A DNA stretch of 42,646 bases from positions 1-42,646 of the IMG/VR virus record IMGVR_UViG_3300048916_000077. One strand, written 5' to 3'. Made by a program: the position numbers and the translations under genes. The stretch is from a virus. Within the stretch, counting starts at the first letter, position 1, and each line of letters opens with the position of its first letter. Below the pieces are notes generated by a model. The model had not been told where the DNA came from. It ran no database searches and saw nothing but the letters and a program-made list of their open reading frames with translations. This document shows positions 1 through 42,646 of the stretch, piece by piece.

Positions 1-127
1 TAGGGTCACACCGATCTGATTTTCAACAACCCAGACTCCGCTAACCGCCTTTAAGACCAGAACCTGATTTGCCGCGTTCCATGTGCATGTGGTGCTGGCC
101 GTTCCACCGATCACATTGGTCAGCGCC
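1..127. repeat. Terminal direct repeat, copy 1 of 2 (127 bp, identical to 42520..42646)
   Basis: Direct comparison shows that bases 1-127 (tagggtcacaccgatctg...attggtcagcgcc) recur exactly as the last 127 bases of the window. An open reading frame reads through the junction, so this is a linearisation or assembly overlap of a circular or circularly permuted molecule. Confidence 0.95.
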
Positions 128-1872
128 ATCGTCACAGTGTTCGTTCCGGTGGTTGACAGCATCTGGATAGCCTTGGTCGTTCCCTGCTGAAGGATCGTCG
201 GGGCGGCTAGAGTGATCGCATAAGTGCCGCTTGAGGGACCCACCAAGGTTGTTAGATCGGCGTCAAGGAACACAGCGCCAGCGGCGGTTAACGCCTGCGT
301 CGGTCGGCCAGCTTCAGCCAAATTTAGCCTTGCTGAACTAGTGATATAGGCGTGAATCGCCTCATAGGCCGGCGAGGCGGGATGATTTATGCCGTTGCCA
401 CCATTCGGGAAGTTCGGCCCATAGCCAAACATTTCGTAGTCGGTCAACGCTGGGATCGTCAGAGCAGGGGTGCTCGGCGAGTAGGTGACGACGATATTGG
501 CCGGGCCGGAACCCGCAGAATATGAGATGGTCGGGGTAAAGGCAGAGCCCCCACGCTGCATAAGCCCTCGAAAGGCTATATTACCATCACAATTCACGGT
601 GATCGCTGAATTGCGTATGGAAATCTCAATGGTGCAGATGCCGTTCGGGATCGCCAATAATGTATTTAGGGCGCTGAGCCAAGTTAAGCCGCCGCCAGAA
701 AAACCGATTAATTGATAGTTTGATCCCGTCTGAGATACTCTCAGTATATTTCCCGCGAGCGCGGACAAAGTAATATCCAGATGCTGGCTGCTGCCGAATG
801 CCTGACCCCCAGTATTGTCGATAGTGAAAATTAGATCGTAGTCCTGTTGCGTGCTCGACAGCGTTACAGGAAGCGCCATCGTCTGACTGGTAATTGAGGC
901 AGTGATGATTTGTGTGGTAGGATCGAACCCGTCACGCAACATGCATCCGATGCGATGATAATCCAGATATCCATAACCTCCGCTGGATGATCCAGGTGCG
1001 CTAAAGGCGGCGAATGAACGCGTACATCCCGCCGCAAAGTCGCGAGCCTCAAGAGCAGTTACTTCGCCTGATCCGCTGTCTGCCTGCGTTCCGCGCGGGA
1101 GATTGGTGCAAAATAGGATGTCTGGGACCTTTGTGAGCCCCAACACGAACGTGACAAGATTGTTGATGGCAGAGATCGTATTCGCGCTGCTATTATTGGC
1201 GCCAAAATCCACGATGATCAGGTCGGGGTTCTGGTTCGAGATAAAACCAGACCACGGCGCCGATGTGGGGGAAAACCAAGACGGAAGGGTGACGCCGGCA
1301 GCTATAAGGGTCGTCCCAGTGGCATTGTACTGCGTGATATCCGTCCCGCCGATCGCCCGATTGACGAAACTTATGGTTCGCCCGTTTCCGGTATTTTGGA
1401 TCTGGAACTGAGCCTCCAGCATGGCCCACAACATTTCAGACGCGGATATGTGATTCGCCGCGTCCGTGCCGGTGCTATCGCTCCAGATGAGAACGACAGG
1501 GTTCAACGCCTTGGCGAAATGCCGAAGGTGGAGGGCGGGGATAATGTTATTTCCGGCAACAATCGCCCGCGCACTGTCGGGCACGACCTTCTTACGGTAG
1601 GTGCTGATGAATGAACCCGGTCCGCGCGCAATCGTATTGCCGAGATTGTAAGCTGTTGGTGCGGTGATATTTAGGTCGCACCAGAATTCCCGCGCACCGT
1701 CAGCGTTGACCATCGGATCGGCGCGGTTGAAGGTCGATTGTAGAGCGGCGCTCTCATCGGTGCCATCGCCCTTGAGCGACACACCAGCCAAGGCCGCATA
1801 ATATTGAATCGGCGGCATCGCGACGTTTGCAACGGCGAAGACAGAGGGAGAGAAAGGCGGGGAACTTGCCAT
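1..1872 (-). CDS. Distal tail fibre / receptor-binding protein with SGNH(GDSL)-like esterase blocks. These are the first 624 codons of a 625-codon gene that crosses the linearisation point; the stop is TGA at 42514..42516.
   Basis: The gene is absent from the ORF track because it runs off the window edge. I translated the minus strand by hand from ATG 1872 and the frame stays open to base 1 (MASSPPFSPSVFAVANVAMPPIQYYAALAGVSLKGDGTDESAALQ...ENQIGVTL). Motifs VVLIWSDSTGTD, NRAIGGTD, IIVDFGANN and GINHPASPAYEAI resemble SGNH blocks I, II, III and V. It lies at the distal end of the tail-gene row. Confidence 0.8.
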   Translation of the reverse strand, partial: MASSPPFSPSVFAVANVAMPPIQYYAALAGVSLKGDGTDESAALQSTFNRADPMVNADGAREFWCDLNITAPTAYNLGNTIARGPGSFISTYRKKVVPDSARAIVAGNNIIPALHLRHFAKALNPVVLIWSDSTGTDAANHISASEMLWAMLEAQFQIQNTGNGRTISFVNRAIGGTDITQYNATGTTLIAAGVTLPSWFSPTSAPWSGFISNQNPDLIIVDFGANNSSANTISAINNLVTFVLGLTKVPDILFCTNLPRGTQADSGSGEVTALEARDFAAGCTRSFAAFSAPGSSSGGYGYLDYHRIGCMLRDGFDPTTQIITASITSQTMALPVTLSSTQQDYDLIFTIDNTGGQAFGSSQHLDITLSALAGNILRVSQTGSNYQLIGFSGGGLTWLSALNTLLAIPNGICTIEISIRNSAITVNCDGNIAFRGLMQRGGSAFTPTISYSAGSGPANIVVTYSPSTPALTIPALTDYEMFGYGPNFPNGGNGINHPASPAYEAIHAYITSSARLNLAEAGRPTQALTAAGAVFLDADLTTLVGPSSGTYAITLAAPTILQQGTTKAIQMLSTTGTNTVTMALTNVIGGTASTTCTWNAANQVLVLKAVSGVWVVENQIGVTL

Positions 1873-7089: not shown

Positions 7090-7091
7090 GA

Positions 7092-24743: not shown

Positions 24744-24747
24744 AGAG

Positions 24748-28706: not shown

Positions 28707-28845
28707 GGGTGCGAGCCTCTGGCTTTTTGGTTGGTTGCTGGGCACACATTGCTTGCGCGGGAGACCTGCAAACGGGCGGAACCCTTAGAGCAATGCTTGG
28801 TATGCTGCGACGGCCCAGCGCGCCGCCTCCAAATTCCGCCCGTGC

Positions 28846-29540: not shown

Positions 29541-29587
29541 GCGCAATCTGTGGCACAATCTTTTTTCGCACACAACACAAAAATTCG

Positions 29588-29616
29588 TTGACAGCGAAAT
29601 CGGTCAAGCGCAAATA
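29588..29616 (+). promoter_or_regulatory. Candidate rightward promoter TTGACA-N17-CAAATA
   Basis: A consensus -35 hexamer, a 17-nt spacer and an A/T-rich -10 lie about 35 nt upstream of the GGAG and GTG start at 29652. Confidence 0.5.
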
Positions 29617-29651
29617 TCTTTTAACGCAAACGAAAAAGTTGGAGCACTAAA

Positions 29652-29891
29652 GTGAGCGCAGAAGACGATATGATAGGCAGGCTCATGGACAGGATCGCCG
29701 AACTTGGTGGCGAACTCTCCCACTGCAAAGAGCTTCTATCCTCGGCTTGCTCTAGCGCGGGATACCACCGCAGAGAGGCGTTGCAACTCACTAAGAAGCT
29801 GAAGGAGCAAAGCCTCGTAGTGGCGATGCTTAACGGACAAATCGAGGAATTGCGCGGGATCATCTCGGGCAAGAAACCAACGGAGGAATAG
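29652..29891 (+). CDS. Small coiled-coil protein (79 aa, GTG start)
   Basis: ORF track. A GGAG sequence lies 7 nt upstream. Confidence 0.55.
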   Translation: MSAEDDMIGRLMDRIAELGGELSHCKELLSSACSSAGYHRREALQLTKKLKEQSLVVAMLNGQIEELRGIISGKKPTEE

Positions 29892-29895
29892 GACC

Positions 29896-30024
29896 ATGGA
29901 CAAAAAGAGGATCGCCCTTCACCTGCTCGACGCGACGCCCGAGGACCGCAGCCGCCATTCGCTGTTCCTCGCCGGCTTCGCCCTCGGGGTGCTGGCCGCC
30001 ACCGTGCTTGTGGTGATGCTGTGA
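29896..30024 (+). CDS. Very small membrane protein (42 aa)
   Basis: It is below the track cutoff and was translated by hand (MDKKRIALHLLDATPEDRSRHSLFLAGFALGVLAATVLVVML). It fills the gap exactly, and its stop overlaps the next GTG start (GTGA). Confidence 0.4.
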   Translation: MDKKRIALHLLDATPEDRSRHSLFLAGFALGVLAATVLVVML

Positions 30025-30212
30025 GCGAGAAATTCGACCTCCTGCTGGACAAACTGGTGAGCACGGCCGAGGCGCTTGGCGTCGCGGAGAATGCCCGCCA
30101 CCAGGCCGAGGCGCGCGAGCAGGCTATGAAAATCCGGCTCGGCGAGCGCGAAGCGGAAATCGTGAAGCTCAAGGCCGCGATGGCCGCAATCCAGGAGAAC
30201 AACGGCAAATGA
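30021..30212 (+). CDS. Small coiled-coil protein (63 aa)
   Basis: ORF track. It is translationally coupled at both ends. Confidence 0.5.
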   Translation: MSEKFDLLLDKLVSTAEALGVAENARHQAEAREQAMKIRLGEREAEIVKLKAAMAAIQENNGK

Positions 30213-30991
30213 CACCAGAGGAAATGATCGAGCGTCGCAAGGGCATTGGAGCCAGTGATGCAAATAAAATCATCGCTGGCGGCGAGGCTTGGTACCAGCT
30301 TTTCATGGAGAAAACCGGCCGCGCCGAGCCGGAAGACCTGTCCGGCGTCTGGGCGGTCCAGCTCGGGAAGACCACGGAAAACCTCAACCTCGACTGGTAC
30401 GAGCGGAAAGTTGGCCGGAAGCTGACCAGCCGCCAGCAGATCGCCGTCAGCGCCGAATACGGGTACCTCCGTGCGACCCTCGACGGGCTCGACGCAGATG
30501 CCGCAACGGTCGTGGAGTGCAAGCACGTCAACGGCTTCTCGAAGTTGCCCGACGTGGTTGCCCGGTACAACGCCCAGGTTTTGCACCAGATGCACTGCGC
30601 CCAGATGCCTCACGGCCTATTGGGCATCATCATCGGCGCCAACGAGCCGGTCTGGGTCGAAGTGGAATGGGACGAATTCTGGTTCAATTCCTACGTTGAT
30701 CGTTGCCGTGAGTTCTGGAGCTATGTCGAGGCCGACAGGGAGCCGCCGGGAGCGCCCGCGCCGCTGGCCGCGCCGATGCCGATCGAGAAGATGCGAACTC
30801 TCGACATGACCGGCAACAATGCCTGGAGCAGCTTCGCGGTGGACTGGCTGGAGAACGGCAAGGCCGCCAAGAAGTTCGAGGGTGCCGTGAAGGGCATCAA
30901 GGGGCTAGTCGAGGCGGATGTCCGCCGCGCCCACGGTCACGGCATCGAAGTTACGCGGGATGGCCGCGGCCTCCGCATTGTGGAGGCATAA
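30209..30991 (+). CDS. YqaJ-like / lambda-exonuclease-type recombination exonuclease (260 aa)
   Basis: ORF track. GIGASDANKI, QLGKTTENL and ATLDGLDADAATVVECKH fit the PD-(D/E)XK YqaJ pattern. It is paired with an ERF annealase downstream. Confidence 0.8.
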   Translation: MTPEEMIERRKGIGASDANKIIAGGEAWYQLFMEKTGRAEPEDLSGVWAVQLGKTTENLNLDWYERKVGRKLTSRQQIAVSAEYGYLRATLDGLDADAATVVECKHVNGFSKLPDVVARYNAQVLHQMHCAQMPHGLLGIIIGANEPVWVEVEWDEFWFNSYVDRCREFWSYVEADREPPGAPAPLAAPMPIEKMRTLDMTGNNAWSSFAVDWLENGKAAKKFEGAVKGIKGLVEADVRRAHGHGIEVTRDGRGLRIVEA

Positions 30992-31432
30992 ATGACTGTG
31001 AGCCTACCAGTCGAGATCTGGCTGAAAAACAACACCCGAGTAGATGAAAATACGGGGTGCTGGTTGTGGGTCAGACGCCTCGATAAGGATGGATATGCGC
31101 AGGGAAGGCGAGCGCCTTCGAGGTCACCAATTCGTGTCCACCGTGTGTCTTATGAGCACTTTAAAGGACCGATCCCCGAAGGGCTGCAGATAGATCACCT
31201 CTGCAGAACCAGAAACTGCGTCAATCCTGATCATCTTGAACCCGTGACGTGCAGGGAAAACATCGTCAGGTCGCCAAGAGTGCAGAAGACTCACTGCCTA
31301 AACGGACATCCTCTTTCGGGGGAGAATCTTGTCATCGTGATTTTCAAGGAAAAGAAAATGCGCGGTTGCAAGGTTTGCCGACTGCGACGAACCAAAGAAT
31401 ATCGTCAAAGACTGAAGATTTCTGAAGTTTAA
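30992..31432 (+). CDS. HNH homing-type endonuclease (146 aa)
   Basis: ORF track. DKDGYAQGRR...VHRVSYEHFKGPIPEGLQIDHLCRTRNCVNPDHLEPVTCRENI is the HNH_3-type pattern. G+C is visibly lower than in the flanking genes. Confidence 0.8.
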   Translation: MTVSLPVEIWLKNNTRVDENTGCWLWVRRLDKDGYAQGRRAPSRSPIRVHRVSYEHFKGPIPEGLQIDHLCRTRNCVNPDHLEPVTCRENIVRSPRVQKTHCLNGHPLSGENLVIVIFKEKKMRGCKVCRLRRTKEYRQRLKISEV

Positions 31433-31447
31433 CCAAGGAGACCTGAC

Positions 31448-31693
31448 ATGAAAATCACACTATCGCGGGACGAGATCACCGAGATCCTGCAGAAGAAGGC
31501 CCAGCAGATCGGCGAGGATTGCTGCGCCGACGATCAGAAGGTGCTCTCGGTGAATATCCCGCATCTCGGGTACACCGACACGATCACCATCGAGATCGGT
31601 GCAGCCACGGTTGAGCCGCCTGAGTTCCACCCATACGTGCCGCCCTCTCCCGCCGCGCCGGCCAACCCTATCGATGAAGAGGTACAGTTCTGA
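31448..31693 (+). CDS. Hypothetical protein (81 aa)
   Basis: ORF track. AAGGAG precedes the ATG. Confidence 0.55.
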   Translation: MKITLSRDEITEILQKKAQQIGEDCCADDQKVLSVNIPHLGYTDTITIEIGAATVEPPEFHPYVPPSPAAPANPIDEEVQF

Positions 31694-32472
31694 TGACCAT
31701 GCACGACAGCGAGACCGGGGAAGTGATGATCACGCCCTCTCTGGACATCGAGACCTCGGCGACGTTCGGCGACTTGGCCGGCGCAATCGCCAAGGCCCAG
31801 TCCACCATCGGCAACGCCGAGAAGGACGCCAAGAACCCGCACTTCAACAGCAAATACGCCACGCTGGCATCCGTCTACGATGCCTGCCGCACGGCTCTGG
31901 CCGAGGCCGGGGTTGCGGTCATCCAGGCCCCGTTCAACATGCCGGAAGGGGATATCGGGGTGGCGACGATGCTAGCCCACTCCAGCGGACAGTGGATGAA
32001 GGGACGGCTGTACTGCAAGCCGACGAAGTACGACGCCCACGGCCTCGGGTCGATCATCACGTACCTGCGGCGCTATAGTCTCTCGGCGATGGTCGGGGTG
32101 GCACCGGAGGACGACGACGGAAACGCCGGGGTGGGCAAGCCGTCCGACCAGCGGGCCGCGCCTCCGCCGCGCCAGCAGGCCCAGCAGCGCAGCCAGGAAG
32201 GCCAACAGCAGGCTTCCCATGCCAACGGGGCAGAACCGGAGGACGCCAAGCGCGCCCGCATCCAGGCGGCCTACAACGCGATCAGCAAGGAGATCGCCGA
32301 GTGCCTCGACCATGCCGACCTGGATGATATCCGGGTGCGGAACGAGGCAGCGCTGGACGAGATCAAGGCATTCTCGCCGACCAGCTATGAGAAGCTGAAG
32401 GACCGGGTTGCCAAGCGGAAGGCGCAGATCACCAACGGCCCCGATGCGGGCGAACAGGAGCCGAAGCTATGA
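31693..32472 (+). CDS. erf: ERF-family single-strand annealing protein (259 aa)
   Basis: ORF track. KNPHFNSKYATLASVYDACRTALAEAGV, LAHSSGQW, GSIITYLRRYSLSAMVGVAPEDDDG is the ERF superfamily pattern. Confidence 0.8.
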   Translation: MTMHDSETGEVMITPSLDIETSATFGDLAGAIAKAQSTIGNAEKDAKNPHFNSKYATLASVYDACRTALAEAGVAVIQAPFNMPEGDIGVATMLAHSSGQWMKGRLYCKPTKYDAHGLGSIITYLRRYSLSAMVGVAPEDDDGNAGVGKPSDQRAAPPPRQQAQQRSQEGQQQASHANGAEPEDAKRARIQAAYNAISKEIAECLDHADLDDIRVRNEAALDEIKAFSPTSYEKLKDRVAKRKAQITNGPDAGEQEPKL

Positions 32473-32657
32473 GGATTTCGGCGCCCGAGATCGATGATTT
32501 CGAGAGGCATATGGGCGGACCCGCCAAGTCCGCCTGCGCCACCTGCGGGAAAACACTTCTGATGCGCTGCGGAGGGTCCGGCTACGTGGACTACCCGGAC
32601 GGGTCTGCCGGTCGCTGCGTCAACCTTCCAGACGATCAGCAGTGGTGGAACGACTAG
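32469..32657 (+). CDS. Small Cys-containing protein (62 aa)
   Basis: ORF track. The sequence contains CATCGK...C...C. Confidence 0.45.
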   Translation: MRISAPEIDDFERHMGGPAKSACATCGKTLLMRCGGSGYVDYPDGSAGRCVNLPDDQQWWND

Positions 32658-32987
32658 ATGTCTGACGGCTTCGAAGACGGCTCGTTCCTTGAGACCCTCC
32701 GGTCAGCCTTGAAAGAGGCTGGCCGGTTGGCCGCGACCGAGAAGAATATCGAGGACGAACGCAAGCGCACGATCTCCGGGCTCATCGCGGAGAGCAAGGA
32801 AGCCGTCAGCCGGGCCGAGCATGTCGCTCGGTCGCACCGGGACGTGCAGGCGCTCGACGATCAGCTTGCCGAGGTGCGGCTGAAGGCTGCCGACGCGGCG
32901 GCCGAGGCGAAGGCGCTTGAGGTGCGGTACGAGATTTGGCGGTCTCGGCTGGCGACTTATCGAGCAAAAATGCAGAGGACCACATGA
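32658..32987 (+). CDS. Coiled-coil protein (109 aa)
   Basis: ORF track. Confidence 0.5.
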   Translation: MSDGFEDGSFLETLRSALKEAGRLAATEKNIEDERKRTISGLIAESKEAVSRAEHVARSHRDVQALDDQLAEVRLKAADAAAEAKALEVRYEIWRSRLATYRAKMQRTT

Positions 32988-33208
32988 CCGAAGAGCCACA
33001 GCCCTACCAGTATCAAATCTTCCTTTTGAACGGTCTCAGCTTTCAGATGACGTCGCCCGAGCCGTACCAGGACTTCCTGAAGACCACGCTGGTGCAGGGG
33101 TACGTGATGACGAACACCGATTTCGCGCCCTACCACGCCATCGCCGTGATTCGGGTGGCCCATGGCATTCCTGCCGCCGGCGCGGCTGATCTCAGGAGTT
33201 TGAATTGA
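32984..33208 (+). CDS. Small hypothetical protein (74 aa)
   Basis: I trimmed the track ORF to ATG 32984, which forms an ATGA overlap with the upstream stop. Confidence 0.5.
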   Translation: MTEEPQPYQYQIFLLNGLSFQMTSPEPYQDFLKTTLVQGYVMTNTDFAPYHAIAVIRVAHGIPAAGAADLRSLN

Positions 33209-34083
33209 AACTCGCCAGCCTCATCGACCGGGACATACCCGAGAAGGCGTTCAAGCTCGGCCCCGGCCTGCCCAACGCCAACATGCCGCCGCTGGCGCAG
33301 TGGTCCAGCATCGCCGGGATGCTCTGCGCCCCCGGCTGCGAGGCGCAGACGTTCCTCCTGCTGGCGTCCTTCGCCGCGCCGCTCATGTCGCTGTTCAAGA
33401 CGCCCGAGGGGGGCGGCATCGTCTCCATCCATGGCGGGAAGCGCTCGGGCAAGTCCGTCGCCCTGGCCGCAGCCGCTAGCGTGTGGGGAGAGCCGCGGTC
33501 GATAACGGTCCCGTCATGGGCGCCCGACCGGCTGGAGCGTATCGCCAAGCTGGGCAACTACCCGGTGATCGCCGAGGGTATGCTCAACCGAGACCCGGCT
33601 CACACCCGCGAGTTCATCATCGATTTCTTGACCGGTCACAAGCAGGAAACCCCGTGGCAGACACTGCTTTTATCGGCGACAGGGATGCCTTTGTTTTCGA
33701 CGGTGATGAGGACGGAGGATGCGCGGCCTGGGCTCGACCTGACCGTGAAGGTGCCGCCGATGCTGATCGAGCCGAAATCTACGGGTCGCCTCGAATATAC
33801 GTTGACGGCGTGCCGGGGCTGGGCTGGTTTGGCCTACCTGAGATACCTGTGCGCCAGCAATGTTACCCGCTGGGCGCGTGGTCAGCTTGTGTCTACCCTG
33901 GCCGGGTTCAACGATGATTTCGGCCTCGGCGAGGAATTCCGGTTCGTGCTGCGGACGATCGCCGCCGTGCATGTGGCTGGGATGATTGTGTCGCGGCTGG
34001 GCATCGTGGATGTGGAGGCCGACCGGGTGACGAAATGGGCCTTGGAGAAGGCCGTACCGCAGAAGAAGGAGAAGGCAGCGTGA
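33205..34083 (+). CDS. DUF927-like P-loop protein (292 aa, TTG start), helicase/primase-associated replication protein
   Basis: ORF track. GGGIVSIHGGKRSGKSVALAAAASVWGEPRSITVPSWAPDRLERIA follows the DUF927 pattern (P-loop, then SvWG.P....W..T.n.lE). Confidence 0.6.
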   Translation: MKLASLIDRDIPEKAFKLGPGLPNANMPPLAQWSSIAGMLCAPGCEAQTFLLLASFAAPLMSLFKTPEGGGIVSIHGGKRSGKSVALAAAASVWGEPRSITVPSWAPDRLERIAKLGNYPVIAEGMLNRDPAHTREFIIDFLTGHKQETPWQTLLLSATGMPLFSTVMRTEDARPGLDLTVKVPPMLIEPKSTGRLEYTLTACRGWAGLAYLRYLCASNVTRWARGQLVSTLAGFNDDFGLGEEFRFVLRTIAAVHVAGMIVSRLGIVDVEADRVTKWALEKAVPQKKEKAA

Positions 34084-34965: not shown

Positions 34966-35499
34966 ATGAAAACGTGTACGCGCTGCAAGATCGAGCAACC
35001 TCTCGAAAATTTCCACCGCAATCGGTCACAGAGTTCCGGACGGCACCCAAGCTGCAAGGCGTGTTGCTCCGCATATGACCGACACCGCCACAAGAACAAT
35101 CCCGTCCGCAGGGCAAAGGCCCAAGCCAGGGCGCGGGAGCGCGTTCGAAGCCTTCCTCTCGTCCAGAAAATATATAGGCTCACCTACGAGTACGGACTTT
35201 CGAAAGAGCAGTATTACGAATTGATCTTCAAGCACCAAGGTCGATGCGCCGTTTGCAGCAGCGAGGCAGAAGACCACCATGGGTTGGTTATAGATCACTG
35301 CCATGATCGAGGCGTGATCCGGGGATTACTCTGCCAAGGATGCAATCTCGCTCTGGGCGCGGTAAAGGATGCACCGGACACGCTACGGAAACTTGCCGAC
35401 TATCTGGAAAAATCAGTAGTCGAGCCCGGAGGCGTAACCATTCCCATGAAGAAGGGGAAGCTGTTTCGAGAGCCGGTTCCCGATGTCCGATCGCCATAG
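34966..35499 (+). CDS. Endonuclease VII-family (Endonuclease_7) free-standing nuclease (177 aa)
   Basis: I trimmed the track ORF to ATG 34966. LVIDHCHDRGVIRGLLCQGCNLALG is the hallmark Endonuclease_7 motif, and there is an N-terminal CxxC...CxxC. It is the only plus-strand gene inside the late operon. Its 3' end overlaps the convergent ATP-grasp gene by 87 nt. Confidence 0.8.
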   Translation: MKTCTRCKIEQPLENFHRNRSQSSGRHPSCKACCSAYDRHRHKNNPVRRAKAQARARERVRSLPLVQKIYRLTYEYGLSKEQYYELIFKHQGRCAVCSSEAEDHHGLVIDHCHDRGVIRGLLCQGCNLALGAVKDAPDTLRKLADYLEKSVVEPGGVTIPMKKGKLFREPVPDVRSP

Positions 35500-36723
35500 A
35501 GGCGAGTTCGGGATTTTCACTTTCTTGACCGTTTCGTACATCTTCCGAGTGGTCGCGCGAACCGTCTCACCAGTGGCACTGACGACTAGAACGTAGTCGC
35601 CAGCGGTCACCAAGCATGGACCGGCTTTGATCTGACCATCCATGTCCTGCGGCGCCGATCCGAGCATACACTCACAGGGATGGATATTTTCCATTAGCTT
35701 GTCGGTGAGGCCGTAAATCGGCACGCCGCACACTTCCTTGCGGGTGATGTGGCTATAGGGAAAGTCAGGTATGGCGATGAGGCAGCCCGCCGCTACCGTG
35801 TCCATCTTGAAGGGCTTGGAGTCTTGCCCGTCTGCGAGCGCGGCCAGCCATTCTGCATGATCTCCGTCGATGAGCGCCTGTTGGATGTTGAAGGTAGGCC
35901 AGCCCGGCCGCATGGTAAACTCCAAAGGCCACGGCGTGCCGGCGTCGTCGATGATGCAGTTGACATCGACATAGCCGACATGGCCGAGGGAGACGAGGTA
36001 GTCCTCCAGCGGCGCGAGCACCTTGTTTGCCAATTTCGAGTTGCGAACGACGCGTAGCACGGTGCCCATCTCGCCCGTCTGCGGCCCGCACTCGCCGGCC
36101 ATCATCCGCTTGAACTCGAAGTTCTCGCACCAGCCGTCGCTGAACCCGTGAGGCCCTACCCAAGCCCCGACTGCCGCCTCTACGCCGCTGACCAGATCCT
36201 GCAAGATGAAGCGCATCCGCTTCCCGGCCTTCTTCCAACGCTGCAACATGTACACCATGTCGGCCGGGGTCTTGGCGACATAGGACATGTTCTTGTCGGG
36301 CTCATCGCCCAGCGGCTTGCTGGCGTAGGGCTTGCCGGTCTTCAGCACATAGGCAATGGCGTCGTCGTAGTTGGAGAATTCCTTGTACGGCGGGATGTCA
36401 ATATCGTGATCGGCAAACACCTTCATCGCCTCGGCGCGGTCGAGCTCCAAGGCGGCGCTGGCGATCGTCGGCCCGAGGATCGGCGTTCCTTCGCGGCGAT
36501 AGGGCTCAAGCTGGGAAAGGTATTTCACATTGTCGGGCATGAAGATGAAGTCGGCCCACCGCGCCCACGTCCGCCAGTCCGCAACGCGCTCGACCAGCCC
36601 CTTGCCGATCAGGCACGTCTTCGGGTTGTCGGGCACGTACCACTTCACCAAGTGCTTATCGTCCAAGCACCTCATAGCGAAGTCCAGGGCGAAAGCGCCT
36701 TGGTCAATGATGAGTATTTTCAT
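35413..36723 (-). CDS. PurD-like (glycinamide ribonucleotide synthetase-like) ATP-grasp ligase (436 aa)
   Basis: ORF track. The N-terminus is MKILIIDQG. LELDRAEAMKVFADHDIDIPPY marks the start of the ATP-grasp domain. FEFKRMMAGECGPQTGEMGTV aligns in pattern with PurD DHKR..dGD.GPNTGGMG. GYVDVNCIIDDAGTPWPLEFTMRPGWP aligns with G.LY.GLM....G.kVlEfN.RfGDPE. Confidence 0.75.
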   Translation of the reverse strand: MKILIIDQGAFALDFAMRCLDDKHLVKWYVPDNPKTCLIGKGLVERVADWRTWARWADFIFMPDNVKYLSQLEPYRREGTPILGPTIASAALELDRAEAMKVFADHDIDIPPYKEFSNYDDAIAYVLKTGKPYASKPLGDEPDKNMSYVAKTPADMVYMLQRWKKAGKRMRFILQDLVSGVEAAVGAWVGPHGFSDGWCENFEFKRMMAGECGPQTGEMGTVLRVVRNSKLANKVLAPLEDYLVSLGHVGYVDVNCIIDDAGTPWPLEFTMRPGWPTFNIQQALIDGDHAEWLAALADGQDSKPFKMDTVAAGCLIAIPDFPYSHITRKEVCGVPIYGLTDKLMENIHPCECMLGSAPQDMDGQIKAGPCLVTAGDYVLVVSATGETVRATTRKMYETVKKVKIPNSPLWRSDIGNRLSKQLPLLHGNGYASGLDY

Positions 36724-38201
36724 GGGTTCGTCGGGGTCGCGCCGGGGATCATCAGTTTCTGGTACGGCTTCGACAGCATGACCGATTGCGCGATTGGCTT
36801 GCCGGTGGCGAGCGCCATCAGCCCGGGCCGTCCGGTCGCCGCGGCACCAAGGCCCGATAGGAAGAAGTCCATGCCCGTGGATGGCGTGCCGCCGAATGCC
36901 TGCGGGCTCTGGAACGCCTTCGGGAAGCCGTTGGCCGCATCGGCGATGGTCTTAAGTTCGTTGGTGAACGGACGCCCCTTGAGCGCCAGCTTGCCGAGGC
37001 CGCGGGCGCTGACATCGCCCGTCGTCGGGTTCGTCGCCCCCTCGATGTCATAGGACTTGGCGATCTGCCGACGCGCGGCGCGGAACTGGTCGATCACCTT
37101 CGGCGGGGCGCTCTTGCTGACATTCCGCTCGACCAAGCTTTCCAGGCTGTGCGCCGCGTCGCGCTGCGCCAGGCCAAGGGCGTGCTTCTGCGCCGAGTAG
37201 TCGCCGGTCGCCTTGAGGTTGGCGTTGGCGTCGGAGCGCAGAAGCTTGATCTTCTGCATCAGCGCATCGGTCGGGACCGGATCGGTTCCGGTCTTGCCCC
37301 CGAGCGCCATCATGTCCTTCCGCAGATTGATGATCTCCGGGTTCTTCGCCGAGCGCGGGAACAGCTTGCTCGCTTGGCTGTTGACGCCGCCCAGGTCCGT
37401 CGCGGCCTTCTTGAAGGCTGTATCCGGCTTGACGGTCGGGACTGCCTTGGTGACGGCCTGATAGGCTTTCCCGGCCTCGTTGCGCACGTCGCCGAACACC
37501 TTGTCATTCAGCACCGTGTCGTCAGGCAGACCGAGCGCCTTGGCCGCCAGCTTGTTCGTCACTTCCTGGTTCTTGATCGAGGCTGCCTGAAGCGTCTCAT
37601 TTTTGCCGGCCACCTTGCCGAGCGCAGATGAGATGCCGCCCGGTTCCTTGCTGGCCGTGCCGGGCGTCAGAACATAGCCAGCGTCGCGCGCCGCCTGCGC
37701 GCCGGGACGCGGAGGACCACCGATCTTTGGCACAGCATCGGCGACGGCCTCGGCCGCACGGGGAACGGCTCGCACTGCGCTGCCGATCAGCTTTGCCTCA
37801 CCGCCGGGAGCCGCCATGCCAATACCCGCATCGGCCACGTTCGCAAGGGTCTGAGAGCCGGGCAGCTTCGTGTCACGAATGGGGTCGCTGACAAGAGCGC
37901 GGCCGGCGCCGGTTGCGGGAGAAAGGACTTGCTGCATCCCGCCCAGCGCCGTGCGAATGGCGCCGGTGAAGCGTCCGCCAAGATCGGCCTGCGGGTTCAA
38001 CAGATCGGCCTCGCCCTGCTTCACGTTCGCGCTGCCAGCGGAGAAGTCCTGCCCGATGTCCTTCGGGATGTTGGCGATGGGTCGCAGCGCGGCTGGCGTC
38101 TGCGCCTCGGGCTGCGCGGGAGCGGCCTGATACTTGGTCCACGGCCCGTCAGCGGATGGCGCTGCCGACTGCTGATACTTAAGCCACGGTTCGTCAGCCA
38201 T
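36720..38201 (-). CDS. Internal virion / ejection-protein-like protein (493 aa)
   Basis: ORF track. The N-terminal duplicated motif is EPWLKYQ / GPWTKYQ. The protein is Ala/Gly/Lys-rich with no enzymatic motif recognised. The call is positional inference. Confidence 0.5.
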   Translation of the reverse strand: MADEPWLKYQQSAAPSADGPWTKYQAAPAQPEAQTPAALRPIANIPKDIGQDFSAGSANVKQGEADLLNPQADLGGRFTGAIRTALGGMQQVLSPATGAGRALVSDPIRDTKLPGSQTLANVADAGIGMAAPGGEAKLIGSAVRAVPRAAEAVADAVPKIGGPPRPGAQAARDAGYVLTPGTASKEPGGISSALGKVAGKNETLQAASIKNQEVTNKLAAKALGLPDDTVLNDKVFGDVRNEAGKAYQAVTKAVPTVKPDTAFKKAATDLGGVNSQASKLFPRSAKNPEIINLRKDMMALGGKTGTDPVPTDALMQKIKLLRSDANANLKATGDYSAQKHALGLAQRDAAHSLESLVERNVSKSAPPKVIDQFRAARRQIAKSYDIEGATNPTTGDVSARGLGKLALKGRPFTNELKTIADAANGFPKAFQSPQAFGGTPSTGMDFFLSGLGAAATGRPGLMALATGKPIAQSVMLSKPYQKLMIPGATPTNP

Positions 38202-39733
38202 TACTGCTTTTCCCAGCTTTCCGGCTTGGACGGATCGCCGCCTTTGAACTTGTACCCATTCTCGACCGTGCCCACGGCGGGAGCGCCGCTGTCGGACGAC
38301 GCTGCCGGGGCATCTTCCTTCTTGCCGCCAACCCGCTGACCCTTGATCGCCTGCTCATAGGTCTGGATGCGGTTGTCGCCCTCGCCAAGCATCGCGTCGG
38401 CCACGGAATCGAATGACCTTGGCGTCATATTCGAATTGGCCCATTTCTGAGCCTCCTCGGCAGCGCCTTGGTGGAGTTGCGCGATGGACGCCTGACCACC
38501 GGATAGGATGCGGGCGGATTCCATCGCCGTCGCGCTCATGTGGTAGAACAGAGAAGAAAGGTTGGGGTCGCCCGTCCACTCTTCATCTTTTCTGATGATC
38601 GCATTGAGGATCGGCGACAGATCGGAGGATGTCAGTTTTTTCATATCGGCTTTGGTTTGCTCGATATTGTACTTCAACTGGCCGATAGCCTGCTTCGTCG
38701 CTCCAAGCATCTGGGTAAGCTGGCCCGCGCTCTTCTTCCCACTCTGGAATTCGATGGAGCGGTTGGCGAGTTCTATCCCGGCTTCCTCGTCCGACATGCC
38801 GGGGTTCTGCGCTTTGATTTCGAGACGCGCATCGGCCATTGCCTGCTGACGTGCTCGAACGGCCTCCTTGCCATAGCCGGGTATGATCTGGTTCAGCGGC
38901 TGGCCGGTCGCCACCTGGGCGGCAATCGCCTTGCGGTCTTCCGGCGTGGTCGGAATTCCACCCTTCGACGCCTCGAACTTTTCCCGGTCGAGCCCCAATC
39001 GCTGGGTCTCTATGCCCAGGCGAGCACCTTCCGTCCGCTCTGTGGCCTTGTCATGGCTAGTGCGCTCCTGCAGCTCGGCTTCCTGATGGACCTGCTCAAT
39101 GTGCTTTTGCACCGCCTCGATCCGATCTTTCAGGATCGGCTCAACCTGTTTCAGCATTTCCAGCCGCGAATGGAAGTCGGCGAGAAAGCGCTTCGGGTCG
39201 TTCGCGGCGGCCGGATCGGCGGCGAGGATGGCTTGCTTCTGCTGCATCCCCCAGTTGGCAAACCACGCATCCGGGTTCGATGAGGGATCAATCGGCGGCG
39301 CGCCAGCGGGCGGCCCAGCCTGTGGCGGCGGCGCTGCCTGCTGGCCGGGCTGCACCATCGGCTGCTGTGGCGGCGGGCCGCCCGGCATCGGCTGCGCACC
39401 GGGGATGGGCCCCTGCGGACCGGGACCGGCCATCTGCGGCTGCGGGCCATCGGGAAGCGACGGCTGACCCGGCATCGGCTGCTGTCCAGTCATCGGCGGC
39501 GGGCTGGGCATGGCAGGAGCGCCGGCCTGTACCGCACCGGGCAAGCCTCCGAAGCCGCCGGCCATGCGCGCGTCTGCTGCATCGGCTTCCTGCTGGCGCT
39601 GGATTTGCGCCTGCTGGATTTGCTGGTTCTGCTGCTCGATCGCCAGCCGCTGAAGCGCAAGCTGGCGCTGCAGGGCCTGATCCTGGGCTGCCTGATAGCC
39701 ACCGCCAACGGCGCTGAGTGCCGCGAGGTTCAT
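38201..39733 (-). CDS. Internal virion / ejection-protein-like protein (510 aa) with Gln-rich coiled coil and about 90-aa Pro/Gln/Gly-rich tract
   Basis: ORF track. Representative stretches are QRQLALQRLAIEQQNQQIQQAQIQRQQ and PMPGQPSLPDGPQPQMAGPGPQGPIPGAQPMPGGPPPQQP. The call is positional inference. Confidence 0.5.
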   Translation of the reverse strand: MNLAALSAVGGGYQAAQDQALQRQLALQRLAIEQQNQQIQQAQIQRQQEADAADARMAGGFGGLPGAVQAGAPAMPSPPPMTGQQPMPGQPSLPDGPQPQMAGPGPQGPIPGAQPMPGGPPPQQPMVQPGQQAAPPPQAGPPAGAPPIDPSSNPDAWFANWGMQQKQAILAADPAAANDPKRFLADFHSRLEMLKQVEPILKDRIEAVQKHIEQVHQEAELQERTSHDKATERTEGARLGIETQRLGLDREKFEASKGGIPTTPEDRKAIAAQVATGQPLNQIIPGYGKEAVRARQQAMADARLEIKAQNPGMSDEEAGIELANRSIEFQSGKKSAGQLTQMLGATKQAIGQLKYNIEQTKADMKKLTSSDLSPILNAIIRKDEEWTGDPNLSSLFYHMSATAMESARILSGGQASIAQLHQGAAEEAQKWANSNMTPRSFDSVADAMLGEGDNRIQTYEQAIKGQRVGGKKEDAPAASSDSGAPAVGTVENGYKFKGGDPSKPESWEKQ

Positions 39734-40689
39734 CCGAAGCTCCCGTAGCTGCCTGGGTCTTGGTAGGACTGGATCGGCTGGTACGAGAGCGTGCTGCCGT
39801 ATGTGCCGCCACTGACCGCCGGGAGACTGCCGCCCTGGTACTGATTGTACGCCTGCGACAGGCCGGAAAGGCCCTGGCCGAGGTTCTGGCCGATCTGCTG
39901 ACCTTGGTTGAACCCGATCTGCTGGCCGGTCTGGCCGATTCCGAGATAGCCCTGCGCCGCGCTCGATGCCGAGGAATTCAGGTTTGAGCCCTGCGTCAAC
40001 GCGCCCAGGCCGGCGTTCTGCATCCCGACGTAGGTGCTGTACGGCAGCGCCGAGCCGGTCGTGTAGGCCCCGGCCGCCGCGTTGCCCAGGTTGCCGCTGG
40101 CCGTGTAGGCGTTGCCGCCCTGGCCGAGATACTGGCCGTACGACTGCAGGCCGGACTGCTCGCGGGCAAGCTGGTTGTTGCGCCAGTCGATGTTGAAGTT
40201 GCCCAGCGTCTGGCCCAGGACGCCGGCGGCATAGGGCGAGTTGCCCACGCCCGTGGCCGACAGCCCGGCCAGGGTCTGGTCCTGGGTCTGTTGTAGCGTC
40301 CGGTTATAGAGCGCGTTCTGCGGATCGAAGGCGGTGTTGAGTTCCCGGTTGGCCGCGCCGAAGCCCCGGTTGGCCTCATTTCCGATGCGGGCGGAATCGC
40401 GCTGAAGCCTGGGACCGAGATTGCTGGTCAGGTAATGCCCCGCCCGCTCGGCGCCGGGGATGACGCCGCGCTGGTACGGGTTGCTGATGATGTTGCGGGC
40501 GATGGTGTTGCCGAGTTGGGCGTTGTGGGTCAGCCCATACATATTCTGCTGGGCGTTGGCATCGCCGCCCTGCTGGTTCTGCGGGACGTAGGCGTCGCCT
40601 CCACCGCCACCGCCACTATTTGCCATGCCATAGGCAGCGCTGGCGATGGTGGCAACTGAGGCGACTGCGCCCAAGGCGGCAAAAGGCAT
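39730..40689 (-). CDS. Gly/Gln/Asn-rich low-complexity protein (319 aa) with hydrophobic N-terminus; internal-virion-like
   Basis: ORF track. MPFAALGAVASVATIASAAYGMANSGGGGGG is followed by N/Q/G/Y-rich sequence to the C-terminus. Confidence 0.5.
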   Translation of the reverse strand: MPFAALGAVASVATIASAAYGMANSGGGGGGDAYVPQNQQGGDANAQQNMYGLTHNAQLGNTIARNIISNPYQRGVIPGAERAGHYLTSNLGPRLQRDSARIGNEANRGFGAANRELNTAFDPQNALYNRTLQQTQDQTLAGLSATGVGNSPYAAGVLGQTLGNFNIDWRNNQLAREQSGLQSYGQYLGQGGNAYTASGNLGNAAAGAYTTGSALPYSTYVGMQNAGLGALTQGSNLNSSASSAAQGYLGIGQTGQQIGFNQGQQIGQNLGQGLSGLSQAYNQYQGGSLPAVSGGTYGSTLSYQPIQSYQDPGSYGSFG

Positions 40690-40702: not shown

Positions 40703-41260
40703 CTAAGGGAGGTCGCCCTCCGTCCGCGCGCATACTATCAGGGTAACCCTTTCGGTGTCACCGTTGTTTTCCACGCTGTGCGTCCGCAGATTGTCGAACG
40801 TCCAAGCCTCTCCCGGCTTCATGTGCACCCGGTCATGCTCGCAGATATTCACGCACTCCGGGTTGTTCAGGATCGGCAGATAGATTTTGCAGTTGTGGAA
40901 CTCGGCGTGCCATGAACCCCGGTCATCGTGCGGCAGGATCTGGCCGCCAGGCGGGATGCGCGTGATCAGGATCGCGCCCAAGTGCGTCGCCTCGACCAGC
41001 CGCATCAGGTCGAACACGATGGGCTTCAATGCCGGCAGGGCGTACCAAGCCGGGTAGAACTCACCCCAATGCGGCTCGCGGTAGTTCTTCGGCTCCTTGA
41101 GTTCGGCCATCGGGCGATAGCGCACCCAGATATCGGTCATCTCGGCGTGGACGCCCGAGCGGCGCTGCGGGTTCGCGTCCCACAGTTCGGGCGAGCGCTC
41201 AAGCTGATCACGCAGCGGGCGAATATCGATCCCGGTCTTCAGCAGGGTGAAGTTCTTCAC
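40703..41260 (-). CDS. Aspartyl/asparaginyl beta-hydroxylase-family cupin (185 aa), metal-binding triad intact
   Basis: ORF track. ITRIPPGGQILPHDDRG...CKIYLPILNNPECVNICEHDRVHMKPGEAWTFDNLRTHSVENNGDTERVTLIV follows the PF05118-type pattern (pG..i.pH.D ... R.HlPl ... GE.w.fD....H.v.N.g...Rv.Li). Confidence 0.75.
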   Translation of the reverse strand: MKNFTLLKTGIDIRPLRDQLERSPELWDANPQRRSGVHAEMTDIWVRYRPMAELKEPKNYREPHWGEFYPAWYALPALKPIVFDLMRLVEATHLGAILITRIPPGGQILPHDDRGSWHAEFHNCKIYLPILNNPECVNICEHDRVHMKPGEAWTFDNLRTHSVENNGDTERVTLIVCARTEGDLP

Positions 41261-41496
41261 AACGGTTCAATAATCTCGAACGGCTCGGTAAATTTGACCA
41301 TGAAGAACCCAGGCCCGTGCGGGCTGCCCGGATCGTACATCGCGAATTCGCCGGTCTCGAAAATAAGTCCTTTTGCTCCATCGTGGCCCGTTTGCACGCC
41401 CCTCAGGACCAAATCCTTCCCGCCTTTATAGGGCCGGAATATGGTGCCCGGCTTAACATCTTCTTCCCTGACGCTGACCACCCAAAGACCAATCAT
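41257..41496 (-). CDS. Small hypothetical protein (79 aa) inside the enzyme cassette
   Basis: ORF track. Its stop overlaps the start of the downstream cupin gene (4-nt ATGA-type overlap). No motif was recognised. Confidence 0.5.
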   Translation of the reverse strand: MIGLWVVSVREEDVKPGTIFRPYKGGKDLVLRGVQTGHDGAKGLIFETGEFAMYDPGSPHGPGFFMVKFTEPFEIIEPL

Positions 41497-41508
41497 GAAA
41501 ACCTCCGA

Positions 41509-42072
41509 TTAAAGCGCCGGCCCATAGATCGTCCGCAGCCCGGCCATGTTCTTCGTCCCGGCATCGATCACCGATTTGGCGTCGGTCTGCACGTTGACAT
41601 GGCCCCACAGGTCCCACCAGTGGCCCGGCATGGTCTCGCCGAGGCAGTGGCGGAAGATCCAGGCACAGGTCGCCTTGTCGTTCAGTTCCTCGAACCGGAC
41701 CACGATTGCGTGCGGGAGCCAGGAGGCCCGTTCGAGCTTCTGCGCCAGATGTTCGAGGAAGTGCCCTGCCATCGGATAGCCGATCCGCGCCATGCTGGCC
41801 CGCACCTGCGCTATATCGCGCCGCACGACCACCATGCGCGTCGCTGGGAGCGCCCTGGCGATGTCCTCGGCACGGAGGCCCAGCATTGTATCGGACAGCC
41901 CCACGCCCGCCCGCAGCGTCGCCAGCACCTCATCGAAGCTCCCCATGGTCGCTGTGCCCTCATGGCGGCACTCGCGGTCGCCGTAGGACAGGAAGTTCGC
42001 CAGCCACGCTGTTCGGCTCCGCGGCAGGCCGAGAACGCAGAACGGGTTATTCGGCATCGACCGGCACCACAT
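41509..42072 (-). CDS. NodH-like sulfotransferase-fold protein (187 aa; alternative ATG at 42057 gives 182 aa)
   Basis: ORF track. FCVLGLPRSRTAWLANFL resembles the 5'-PSB P-loop of NodH/Sulfotransfer-type enzymes (FAILAMPRTGTHYLEELL in NodH as I recall it). MVVVRRDIAQVRASMAR resembles the 3'-PB RxDxxxxxxS motif. Confidence 0.55.
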   Translation of the reverse strand: MWCRSMPNNPFCVLGLPRSRTAWLANFLSYGDRECRHEGTATMGSFDEVLATLRAGVGLSDTMLGLRAEDIARALPATRMVVVRRDIAQVRASMARIGYPMAGHFLEHLAQKLERASWLPHAIVVRFEELNDKATCAWIFRHCLGETMPGHWWDLWGHVNVQTDAKSVIDAGTKNMAGLRTIYGPAL

Positions 42073-42517
42073 CCACGACCAGGTGTATCCGGTCGTTCAT
42101 GCCCAGGTTGATCTCGCTGTGCAGCATCCGGTGATTGAGCAGCACAAGCTGGCCGACCGGCGCGACCATCGCATCGCCGCCGCAGTAGAGCCACGCGGCC
42201 GGCGACGGGACGAGGCAGACATGCACCCGCACCATCTGCTCGGTCTCGACGCTCTTTTCCTCCTGCCAGGGGGTGAAGCCACCGGGCGGCAGGGAGACGA
42301 TCTCAGCGCGGCGGATGAGGCAGTCGCTGTCGCCGCCGACCAGCCGCTTGATCCGGTTCAGCAGGTTCTTCGCCGACTTGAACTTCTCCAGCACCGGGCG
42401 GTCGCCTTCGGCATCGCGCAGCACGATCGAGCCGCCCATGAAGCTCTCGCGGTGCCGGACGAGGAGGTTGGCGGTCATCATCGACGTGTCGATGAAGCCG
42501 AGGGAGCGGAGGCTCAC
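42047..42517 (-). CDS. Second Asp/Asn beta-hydroxylase-family cupin paralogue (156 aa, GTG start) with altered first metal-ligand position
   Basis: ORF track. SLPPGGFTPWQEEKS...RVHVCLVPSPAAWLYCGGDAMVAPVGQLVLLNHRMLHSEINLGMNDRIHLVVDV follows the same family pattern as 40703..41260, but has W-Q-E where the paralogue has H-D-D. Its GTG start overlaps the TGA of the wrap-around fibre gene. Confidence 0.6.
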   Translation of the reverse strand: MSLRSLGFIDTSMMTANLLVRHRESFMGGSIVLRDAEGDRPVLEKFKSAKNLLNRIKRLVGGDSDCLIRRAEIVSLPPGGFTPWQEEKSVETEQMVRVHVCLVPSPAAWLYCGGDAMVAPVGQLVLLNHRMLHSEINLGMNDRIHLVVDVVPVDAE

Positions 42518-42646
42518 GTTAGGGTCACACCGATCTGATTTTCAACAACCCAGACTCCGCTAACCGCCTTTAAGACCAGAACCTGATTTGCCGCGTTCCA
42601 TGTGCATGTGGTGCTGGCCGTTCCACCGATCACATTGGTCAGCGCC
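42514..42646 (-). CDS. 3' end of the wrap-around tail-fibre gene (same gene as 1..1872; last sense codon plus TGA at 42514..42519, the rest duplicates bases 1..127)
   Basis: The frame from ATG 1872 places CTA at bases 3..1. In the end copy the same frame continues ...GTG ACC CTA ACG TGA. Confidence 0.8.
   Translation of the reverse strand, partial: ALTNVIGGTASTTCTWNAANQVLVLKAVSGVWVVENQIGVTLT
42520..42646. repeat. Terminal direct repeat, copy 2 of 2 (identical to 1..127)
   Basis: Direct comparison with bases 1-127. Confidence 0.95.

Follow-up and report, generated by a model that had tools for sequence, protein, structure and literature searches.

A podovirus gene cassette pairing a predicted 2-oxoglutarate hydroxylase with a sulfotransferase-fold protein beside a putative ejection protein

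Introduction

Bacterial operons that pair a beta-hydroxylase with a sulfotransferase, often together with an acetyltransferase, and that encode glycine-rich or collagen-like proteins or phage tail-collar proteins were described in 2010 by Iyer, Abhiman, de Souza and Aravind in Nucleic Acids Research, who predicted that these glycine-rich proteins are hydroxylated and then sulfated (PMC2938197). The operons are the closest precedent for the locus analysed here, and the scheme is still a prediction. Our locus lies in IMG/VR virus record IMGVR_UViG_3300048916_000077, a stretch of 42,646 nt that we call the window and analysed as a whole phage genome. Four short genes on its minus strand encode a predicted hydroxylase of the PF05118 family (cupA), a degenerate PF05118-like cupin (cupB), a minimal sulfotransferase-fold protein (ST) and a protein of 79 residues (p79), and the gene that follows cupA encodes a putative ejection protein, p319. 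Across related loci, the second residue of the protein encoded downstream tracks the enzyme encoded upstream, and we tentatively suggest that the cassette modifies virion proteins.

The window shares with the bacterial operons the pairing of a hydroxylase with a P-loop sulfotransferase, sometimes joined by an acetyltransferase, beside a Gly-rich, low-complexity protein. It differs in being a phage late operon with an ejection protein as neighbour, in lacking a synthetase for 3'-phosphoadenosine-5'-phosphosulfate (PAPS) and in placing the signal at the N-terminal residue. The bacterial operons also hold phytanoyl-CoA hydroxylase–methyltransferase fusions and PAPS synthetases, and the likeness of their sulfotransferase family to ST is one of description only.

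Single members of these enzyme families have been annotated in phages. An Asp/Asn beta-hydroxylase is listed without explanation in Limnohabitans phage DC33 (PMC12195039) and is also annotated in a Manatee Spring podovirus; OM43 phages carry sulfotransferases of unclear function (PMC10580990); and some Autographiviridae, among them vB_PaeM-G11 (PMC10142737) and PfAn1, have GNAT acetyltransferases annotated between gp12 and gp14. Our literature search for sulfated or hydroxylated virion or ejection proteins of phages, including tyrosine sulfation of virions, returned nothing relevant. We know of no function proposed for the acetyltransferases of the gp12–gp14 slot. The enzyme families are therefore known and the bacterial pairing predicted, and the phage setting is undescribed. 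The initial annotation had raised the novelty of the combination, and this stands in part: this precise set of four genes is restricted to one phage clade and unannotated, but the pairing itself had been predicted in bacteria and individual homologues are annotated in a few phages.

Results

cupA resembles proline hydroxylases and cupB is a degenerate relative

cupA matches PF05118 with 47.6 bits against a Pfam cut-off of 22.6, and the family is present in all 120 cupA homologues listed. The HxD...H metal triad (H111, D113 and H161) and the 2-oxoglutarate (2OG)-binding arginine (R171) are invariant in 40 homologues. In a sequence search of the PDB, only proline 3-hydroxylase and L-proline cis-4-hydroxylase were found at E <0.01, and the metal and 2OG ligands of cupA align with those of 1e5r and 4p7w. 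The AlphaFold2 (AF2) model (predicted local distance difference test score, pLDDT, 95) adopts a double-stranded beta-helix fold like those of solved PF05118-type members. Foldseek ranks 4p7w first (E 8e-10), followed by 7v4f, 1e5s (7e-8) and then AspH (5apa/6yyu, 4e-7). By sequence and modelled fold, cupA is an intact Fe(II)/2OG hydroxylase that stands nearer to proline hydroxylases than to AspH.

Likeness to the proline hydroxylases (L-proline cis-4-hydroxylase, 4P7W; proline 3-hydroxylase, 1E5R/1E5S) centres on the aligned triad and 2OG arginine. Identity is about 20%, and those enzymes are about 290 residues long, have a further domain at the C terminus and take free L-proline as substrate, whereas cupA has 185 residues and its proposed substrate is a protein N-terminus. 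AspH and LpxO share the PF05118 family and the beta-helix fold with cupA, but cupA has neither their TPR nor their membrane domains, and AspH ranks structurally behind the proline hydroxylases. LpxO is anchored in the inner membrane; the sequences of cupA (185 residues) and cupB (156 residues) show no hydrophobic segment. The LpxO-type label of the initial annotation did not hold up: the NCBIfam equivalog NF033391 gives cupA 27.1 bits against a cut-off of 500, and we rejected LpxO as its identity, the nearest structures being L-proline hydroxylases.

cupB is a different case. It passes the PF05118 cut-off by a narrow margin (22.9 versus 22.6 bits) over its C-terminal 61 residues only, and a hidden Markov model (HMM) of cupA matches cupB homologues at 1e-6 to 2e-7. 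A search of 5.8 billion proteins returned just seven homologues. Trp replaces the His of the HxD motif in 7/7, the acidic position varies, and distant members have Asn for the distal His and Ala or Val for the Arg. With the metal-binding His gone and the remaining catalytic positions variable, cupB is unlikely to be an enzyme, and we regard it from these alignments as a probable non-catalytic paralogue of the hydroxylase. It is limited to the clade of the window (relatives L004, L006/L107 and L007), where it lies directly upstream of ST every time. Of the two PF05118-type cupins proposed originally, one is thus clear and the other marginal and probably non-catalytic.

ST has a sulfotransferase fold and a PSB-like loop with an unusual arginine

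ST had been described as a NodH-like sulfotransferase of 187 residues. Its homologues are 182 residues long, so that the start of the window gene is probably at 42057 rather than at 42072. The two motifs on which that call was made, LGLPRSRTAWL (as a 5'-phosphosulfate-binding loop, PSB) and RRDIAQVRAS (as a 3'-phosphate-binding segment, 3'-PB), are both present. In an alignment of 59 homologues, the LPRSRTAWL loop keeps P12, R13, S14, R15, W18 and L19 without exception, and L11, T16 and A17 in at least 90%; His32 is also invariant, and the 3'-PB-like VVVRR...S segment is conserved. The loop has no Walker A GK[ST], and positions 5–22 of the ST profile align to residues 38–55 of SULT2A1. Within the family, 37 of the 59 members match PF13469 (Sulfotransfer_3) at E ≤0.01, the best at 1e-8.

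The AF2 model of ST (pLDDT 96) places the fold more firmly. Foldseek against the PDB finds TPST1/2 as best matches (E 9e-6, template modelling (TM) score 0.63), then other PAPS sulfotransferases, with cytosolic SULTs among the neighbours. The top 17 PDB structures are all sulfotransferases, and P-loop kinases first appear at E ~7e-3. In the viral structure library BFVD, the best matches are phage proteins named 'Sulfotransferase family'. The sulfotransferase fold of the ST model is secure. Use of PAPS is plausible, with the caveat that an invariant Arg occupies the PSB-loop Gly position. No PAPS-synthesis gene was found among the window open reading frames (ORFs) scanned, and ST activity would therefore depend on host PAPS.

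The resemblance to TPST1/2 (5WRJ and 3AP1; E 9e-6 to 1e-4, TM 0.55–0.63) extends to the PSB-type loop and the R...S 3'-PB-type segment. ST differs in being about 100 residues shorter and in carrying Arg for the PSB Gly, and the Tyr content of its neighbour does not track its presence. The likeness is structural, at 13–15% identity: ST had no significant sequence-level match to the TPST family or to PDB sulfotransferases, matched none of the NCBIfam sulfotransferase models, and gave no meaningful BLASTP alignment with an approximate TPST2 sequence. The fold bears out the sulfotransferase call, and in a comparison that covered PDB structures and NCBIfam models TPSTs come nearest, with no demonstrable likeness to NodH in particular. 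The profile and fold checks that had been suggested for the cassette gave a split picture: PF05118 is found in cupA and barely in cupB (22.9 against 22.6 bits), ST stays below cut-off and p79 has no match, and the cupin-hydroxylase and sulfotransferase folds both hold structurally.

ST-type proteins also occur elsewhere. Full-length homologues are encoded in Sanovirus phages, for example in Stenotrophomonas phage Bhz60 (L101; 14469–15047 of its record), amid early or metabolic genes such as MazG-like, NADAR, kinase and cysteine dioxygenase genes. The ST family is not confined to the virion module.

The N terminus of the downstream protein tracks the upstream enzyme

Searches of IMG/VR returned 365 relatives of cupA and 250 of ST, with a further 15 ST relatives in GTDB genomes, including an Azospirillum genome. 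In both P22-like and T7-like backbones, relatives of cupA fill the slot seen here, with tail genes ahead of them and large ejection proteins behind, and most of them occur without ST. The order cupB-ST-cupA-p319-p510-p493-p436 recurs in contigs whose ST is 63% and 80% identical to that of the window, and a relative with 49% ST identity has cupB-ST-p319 without cupA. The synteny that the initial annotation asked after is therefore kept in the 63% and 80% relatives except for p79, which is absent there.

In about 90 ST loci, the next gene lies 2–5 nt downstream and, in almost all, encodes a protein with a hydrophobic, Gly/Ala-rich N terminus. Many of these loci carry a second domain: 61 of the 93 ST ORFs fetched bear a C-terminal domain of about 172 residues that is GNAT-like, its best PDB match being the N-alpha-acetyltransferase Naa30. 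Pfam does not detect this domain. It weakly matches PHROG 1249, which the slot acetyltransferase of PfAn1 matches at 2.6e-9. We also considered the extension as a cupin and rejected this, as neither the cupA nor the cupB HMM matches it. The ST~GNAT fusion (~350 residues; loci L008–L094, for example L019:7995-9047 and L041:7995-9062) lies immediately upstream of an ejection protein that starts Met-Gly, and has no counterpart in 50,697 deposited phage records.

The downstream proteins can be sorted by the enzyme that precedes them. In a set of 128 non-redundant proteins, 63 of the 64 that follow cupA without GNAT start with MP[WFY] and none starts with MG; after GNAT without cupA, where the GNAT is either joined to ST in one protein or encoded behind it, 42 of 52 start with MG and 0 of 52 with MP[WFY]. 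These two states do not sort into separate clades. Among the 62 proteins of the largest homologous cluster, the closest relative of at least six cupA/MP proteins is an ST~GNAT/MG protein, at 38–58% identity, and the MP and MG states interleave among homologous ejection proteins. The p319 family itself shows the same switch, with MP where cupA is present, MG with ST~GNAT and MA with neither.

In every case, residue 2 of the ejection protein is a small one: P, G or A, and C in T7. Methionine aminopeptidase removes Met1 before a small second residue, and hence Met1 should be removed and residue 2 exposed.

The downstream proteins belong to the ejection machinery where they can be assigned. Those that follow cupA in L102 and ST~GNAT in L041 fall in PHROG 598, 'DNA ejection', and the one in L105 in PHROG 4287, 'DNA ejection protein'. 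p319 has no PHROG, Pfam or PDB match. It starts 13 nt past cupA behind a GGAGAG ribosome-binding site, and its N-terminal architecture (MPFAALGAVASVA) resembles that of T7 gp14 (MCWAAAIPIAISG). We call p319 gp14-type by position and N-terminal architecture only, its homology to such proteins being marginal or undetectable.

The cassette slot corresponds to that of gene 13 in the T7 gene 13-14-15-16 region, between the tail or fibre genes and the first ejection-type protein, and the N-terminal architecture of T7 gp14 is the same as that found here. T7 gp13, which occupies this slot, is annotated as an internal virion protein and belongs to PHROG 308. We rejected a relationship between T7 gp13 and the slot GNAT, for which hmmsearch and hhalign find nothing.

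Three further features of the relatives concern the proteins around the slot. A gene of about 100–120 residues usually lies between cupA and the ejection gene (in most of L109–L186; examples are L102:7546-7890 and L105:7560-7922, with a weak Cupin_2 signal or HAH motif and weak similarity to PHROG 12032, annotated 'short tail fiber protein'), and the window is without it. The cupA-only ejection proteins (L109–L186) are almost free of Lys, with a median of 0% versus 1.9% in the ST/GNAT-linked set, and ST/GNAT-linked ejection proteins often carry GGAKKAA just past the hydrophobic N terminus. In L103 (10548-14561), a locus with cupA and ST, the last protein of the ejection block has more than 1,711 residues and carries a faint ART-PolyVal and a ddrB-ParB domain, which marks it as of the polyvalent-protein type, thought to be injected with DNA.

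Possible roles of the cassette

We tentatively favour, at a little under an even chance, a reading in which the cassette encodes cytoplasmic enzymes that modify virion proteins before packaging, chiefly p319. Host methionine aminopeptidase would remove Met1 of the ejection protein, and cupA would hydroxylate the exposed N-terminal Pro or the adjacent aromatic residue, a proposal drawn from the N-terminal covariation together with the likeness of cupA to proline hydroxylases. ST, supplied with host PAPS, would add sulfate to a hydroxyl on the ejection protein or on another virion protein. cupB would be a non-catalytic partner or adaptor of ST, and p79 a recent insertion. Such modification might tune the solubility of the ejection protein in the capsid core, its membrane insertion or its stability. 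We count in its favour that TPST and Naa30, the structures closest to ST and to the GNAT domain respectively, modify proteins and that PF05118 includes the protein hydroxylase AspH. The initial annotation had mentioned post-translational modification of virion proteins as its second choice, and it is this idea that the comparative evidence favours.

Several observations weigh against it. The closest solved relatives of cupA act on free amino acids, not on peptides. The window ST falls below Pfam cut-offs (PF13469, about 18.5–18.6 versus 27 bits; PF17784, 17.4 versus 22.8 bits), and its PSB loop has the invariant Arg where canonical sulfotransferases have Gly. ST co-occurs with both MP and MG proteins and is found in only about 6 of 80 cupA loci, and its homologues in Sanovirus phages sit among early or metabolic genes. 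The Tyr content of the neighbouring ejection protein is lower, not higher, in loci with ST; composition does not support the idea that ST generally sulfates Tyr residues of that protein. For p319, homology is marginal, with an hhalign probability of 54% to a PHROG-598-type cluster, and undetectable (0.1%) to T7 gp14. Fisher's test of the covariation (p ~1e-32 for cupA/MP versus GNAT/MG) ignores phylogeny, and since the enzyme gene adjoins the 5' end of the ejection gene, recombinational hitch-hiking could give such covariation.

The genes lie inside the internal-virion and ejection block, at the position of an annotated internal virion protein in T7, and their products might instead enter the capsid along with the internal virion proteins and be delivered into the host in the manner of T4 Alt or polyvalent proteins, there to hydroxylate or sulfate host targets early in infection for takeover or counter-defence. 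Related ejection proteins do bear enzyme domains, namely a weak Acetyltransf_1 in a protein of 1,402 residues (L005) and ART-PolyVal/ddrB-ParB in the 1,711-residue protein of L103, and the ST homologues of Sanovirus are among early genes. We think injection unlikely: it leaves the tracking of cupA with Met-Pro-Trp/Phe and of GNAT with Met-Gly unexplained, and the proteins are small and soluble and, in family searches, without similarity to known injected effectors. Hitch-hiking would explain the tracking if cupA were an auxiliary metabolic gene whose enzyme used free L-proline or some other small molecule and ST sulfated a small metabolite. This has in its favour that the substrates of 4p7w, 1e5s and 7v4f are free amino acids or nucleosides, that the enzyme genes adjoin the 5' end of the ejection gene, and that 2OG oxygenases and sulfotransferases are common among listed phage auxiliary genes of unknown role (PMC10580990). 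P2 and W/F3 are, however, strictly conserved across divergence of cupA to ~43% identity and across T7-like and P22-like backbones; in most loci the extra gene of about 100 residues separates cupA from the MPW gene, so that the two are not immediately contiguous; and metabolic genes do not usually hold one constant place in the late virion operon. A metabolic role seems to us distinctly improbable.

The slot shared with T7 gene 13, which encodes a non-enzymatic internal virion protein, together with a cupB that clearly lacks catalytic residues, raises the further idea that these proteins, like T7 gp13, serve in assembly or as minor parts of the virion structure and merely keep enzyme-like folds without enzymatic activity. 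Conservation speaks against this, since the catalytic residues of cupA are all invariant in 40 homologues and the nucleotide-binding-type loop and His of ST are invariant in 59, and T7 gp13 is unrelated to the cupin, ST or GNAT folds; we hold it to be very unlikely. Slightly fainter still is the case for the role that the initial annotation had put first, remodelling of the cell envelope or glycans by LpxO-like lipid A hydroxylation and NodH/LpsS-like sulfation, serving receptor modification, superinfection exclusion or release from debris. PF05118 does include LpxO, which cupA weakly matches, enzymes of the Sulfotransfer_3 type include glycolipid and lipopolysaccharide (LPS) sulfotransferases, and the cassette adjoins fibre genes. 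Yet the LpxO model reaches 27 bits against the required 500; membrane segments or signal peptides are found in 0 of the 4 proteins, whereas LpxO resides in the inner membrane; the structural neighbours are proline hydroxylases, AspH and TPSTs, not lipid or glycan enzymes; and the constant partner over ~170 loci is the ejection protein, not glycan genes. Moreover, late genes co-transcribed with virion genes would be poorly timed for exclusion. We found no support for envelope, LPS or glycan remodelling, and consider it highly improbable.

Modification of virion proteins before packaging, the reading we favour, can be extended beyond the window. Many podoviruses may encode gene-13-slot enzymes that, once Met is removed, modify the N-terminal residue of a gp14-type protein, a proline-hydroxylase-like cupin acting on Pro-Trp/Phe and a GNAT acyl- or acetyltransferase on Gly, often with a TPST-like sulfotransferase in addition. 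From sequence comparison we consider this generalization possible and rather doubtful. Picornavirus VP4 and reovirus mu1N are internal capsid proteins that are released at entry to act on membranes; they start Met-Gly and are N-terminally myristoylated by a GNAT-fold enzyme. Their parallel to the phage loci with MG and GNAT is an analogy only, as their enzyme is encoded by the host and the version in the window phage is that of Pro and cupin.

Little is understood of how the ejection proteins of podoviruses remain soluble inside the capsid and afterwards insert into the host envelope, and to our knowledge their post-translational modification has not been considered before. If the wider reading is true, it would represent a phage-encoded post-translational maturation of the membrane-penetration machinery and the first hydroxylation or sulfation of a phage virion protein. 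If the favoured reading is true, it would account for a widespread slot that hydroxylase, sulfotransferase or acetyltransferase genes occupy, hydroxylation or sulfation of phage virions would form a new class of modification, and the 2010 prediction of bacterial hydroxylase–sulfotransferase action on Gly-rich proteins would gain an experimental footing. If the favoured reading is wrong, the cassette amounts to two auxiliary enzymes with known folds.

Genome layout and neighbouring genes

Nucleotides 1–127 of the window are identical to 42520–42646. The identical ends indicate a circular assembly with a true length of 42,519 bp, and the window is a complete circular podovirus genome. Circularity also means that ORFs crossing the junction escape a linear ORF listing. 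The late operon runs on the minus strand from the large terminase through portal, major capsid protein, tail proteins and fibres, and then over the circular junction, by way of a gene for a 625-residue protein, into cupB. The features are collected in Table 1.

Table 1. Features of the cassette and of neighbouring regions in the window
Feature	Coordinates	Strand	Description	Basis or remark
cupA	40703..41260	-	Fe(II)/2OG dioxygenase, Asp/Asn/Pro beta-hydroxylase family, 185 aa	PF05118, catalytic residues, fold
p79	41257..41496	-	79-aa ORFan between ST and cupA	no family match
ST	41509..42057	-	ST-like, 182-aa minimal sulfotransferase-fold protein	extendable to 42072 (187 aa)
cupB	42047..42517	-	degenerate PF05118-like cupin, 156 aa	marginal Pfam score, homologue alignment
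p319	39730..40689	-	Gly/Asn/Gln/Tyr-rich protein with hydrophobic N terminus, 319 aa	position, N-terminal architecture
Remaining putative ejection/internal-virion block	35413..39733	-	510-, 493- and 436-aa proteins	conserved order
436-aa protein of that block	35413-36723	-	PurD-like	full-length alignment to purD genes
625-aa gene	1..1872	-	fibre/spike-like	ORF rebuilt after removal of the 127-nt terminal duplication; crosses junction
3' end of 625-aa gene	42514..42646	-		42520-42646 duplicates 1-127; TGA overlaps cupB GTG start
Fibre-region protein	1876-2358	-	160 aa	signal-peptide-like start
Fibre-region protein	2378-3613	-	411 aa	signal-peptide-like start
Fibre-region protein	3940-7350	-	~1050 aa	signal-peptide-like start
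Replication/recombination module	23109-34083

The gene order is 625-residue fibre, cupB, ST, p79, cupA and p319, and no overlap or gap between neighbours exceeds 26 nt. This bears out both the four tightly packed minus-strand ORFs of the initial annotation and their placement between fibre genes and internal-virion-type proteins, with the 625-residue fibre upstream and p319 downstream. cupB overlaps the 187-residue version of ST by 26 nt (with the 182-residue start at 42057, a 7-nt gap instead); ST in its 187-residue version is separated from p79 by 12 nt, p79 overlaps cupA by 4 nt, and 13 nt lie between cupA and p319. No minus-strand terminator was found within the cassette. Its genes are co-transcribed in the late operon and translationally coupled with the fibre and ejection genes. 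GC content at third codon positions (GC3) is 0.83–0.91 for cupB, ST and cupA, which is typical of the genome, and 0.65 for p79. The genome has no close DNA relative among the 50,697 deposited phages.

p79 is preceded by a GGAGG ribosome-binding site. It has no family matches, and an exhaustive search of 1.84 billion representatives returned only itself and two weak chance matches. One of these had suggested a WD40-like protein, which we rejected as chance, the matched stretch lying beside the WD40 blades of a WD40-repeat protein; the other is to the C-terminal part of a histidine-phosphatase protein. p79 is missing from L004 and L006, where ST and cupA abut.

At the other end of the cassette, the stop codon of the 625-residue gene and the start of cupB share GTGA. 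This gene has a GC content of 0.55 and a GC3 of 0.62, markedly below the remaining genome. The protein has no Pfam or PDB sequence match; it contains a GDSL-like SDSTG motif, and we rejected an esterase label for it, as this would rely on the motif alone, with neither Pfam nor PDB support. It is probably a horizontally exchanged host-range module. The relative L004 has a 563-residue gene plus an Endonuclease VII gene in the same place. Three other proteins of the fibre region, of 160, 411 and about 1,050 residues, have signal-peptide-like starts (for example MRRILLVLAALAVSPLAAAAP and MSKRFLGTLITLGALIGAPFAGAA), which is unusual for virion proteins assembled in the cytoplasm.

Beyond p319, the genes for the 510-, 493- and 436-residue proteins keep the same order in L004 and L006, and the 436-residue gene is also present in L007 and L053. 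Its product has GARS_A and GARS_C matches below cut-off and aligns over its full length, at about 25% identity, to purD genes, identifying it as PurD-like (phosphoribosylamine–glycine ligase, ATP-grasp). This protein is strongly conserved, with E down to 1e-267 in L004 and further homologues in L006, L007, L053 and MW202796; an ATP-grasp ligase would be an unexpected last gene for the ejection block. No tRNAs or integrase were found among the window ORFs scanned. The replication and recombination module encodes a SNF2-type helicase, a DUF927 primase-like protein, an Erf-like annealing protein, a RecE-like exonuclease, RusA and an MT-A70 methyltransferase.

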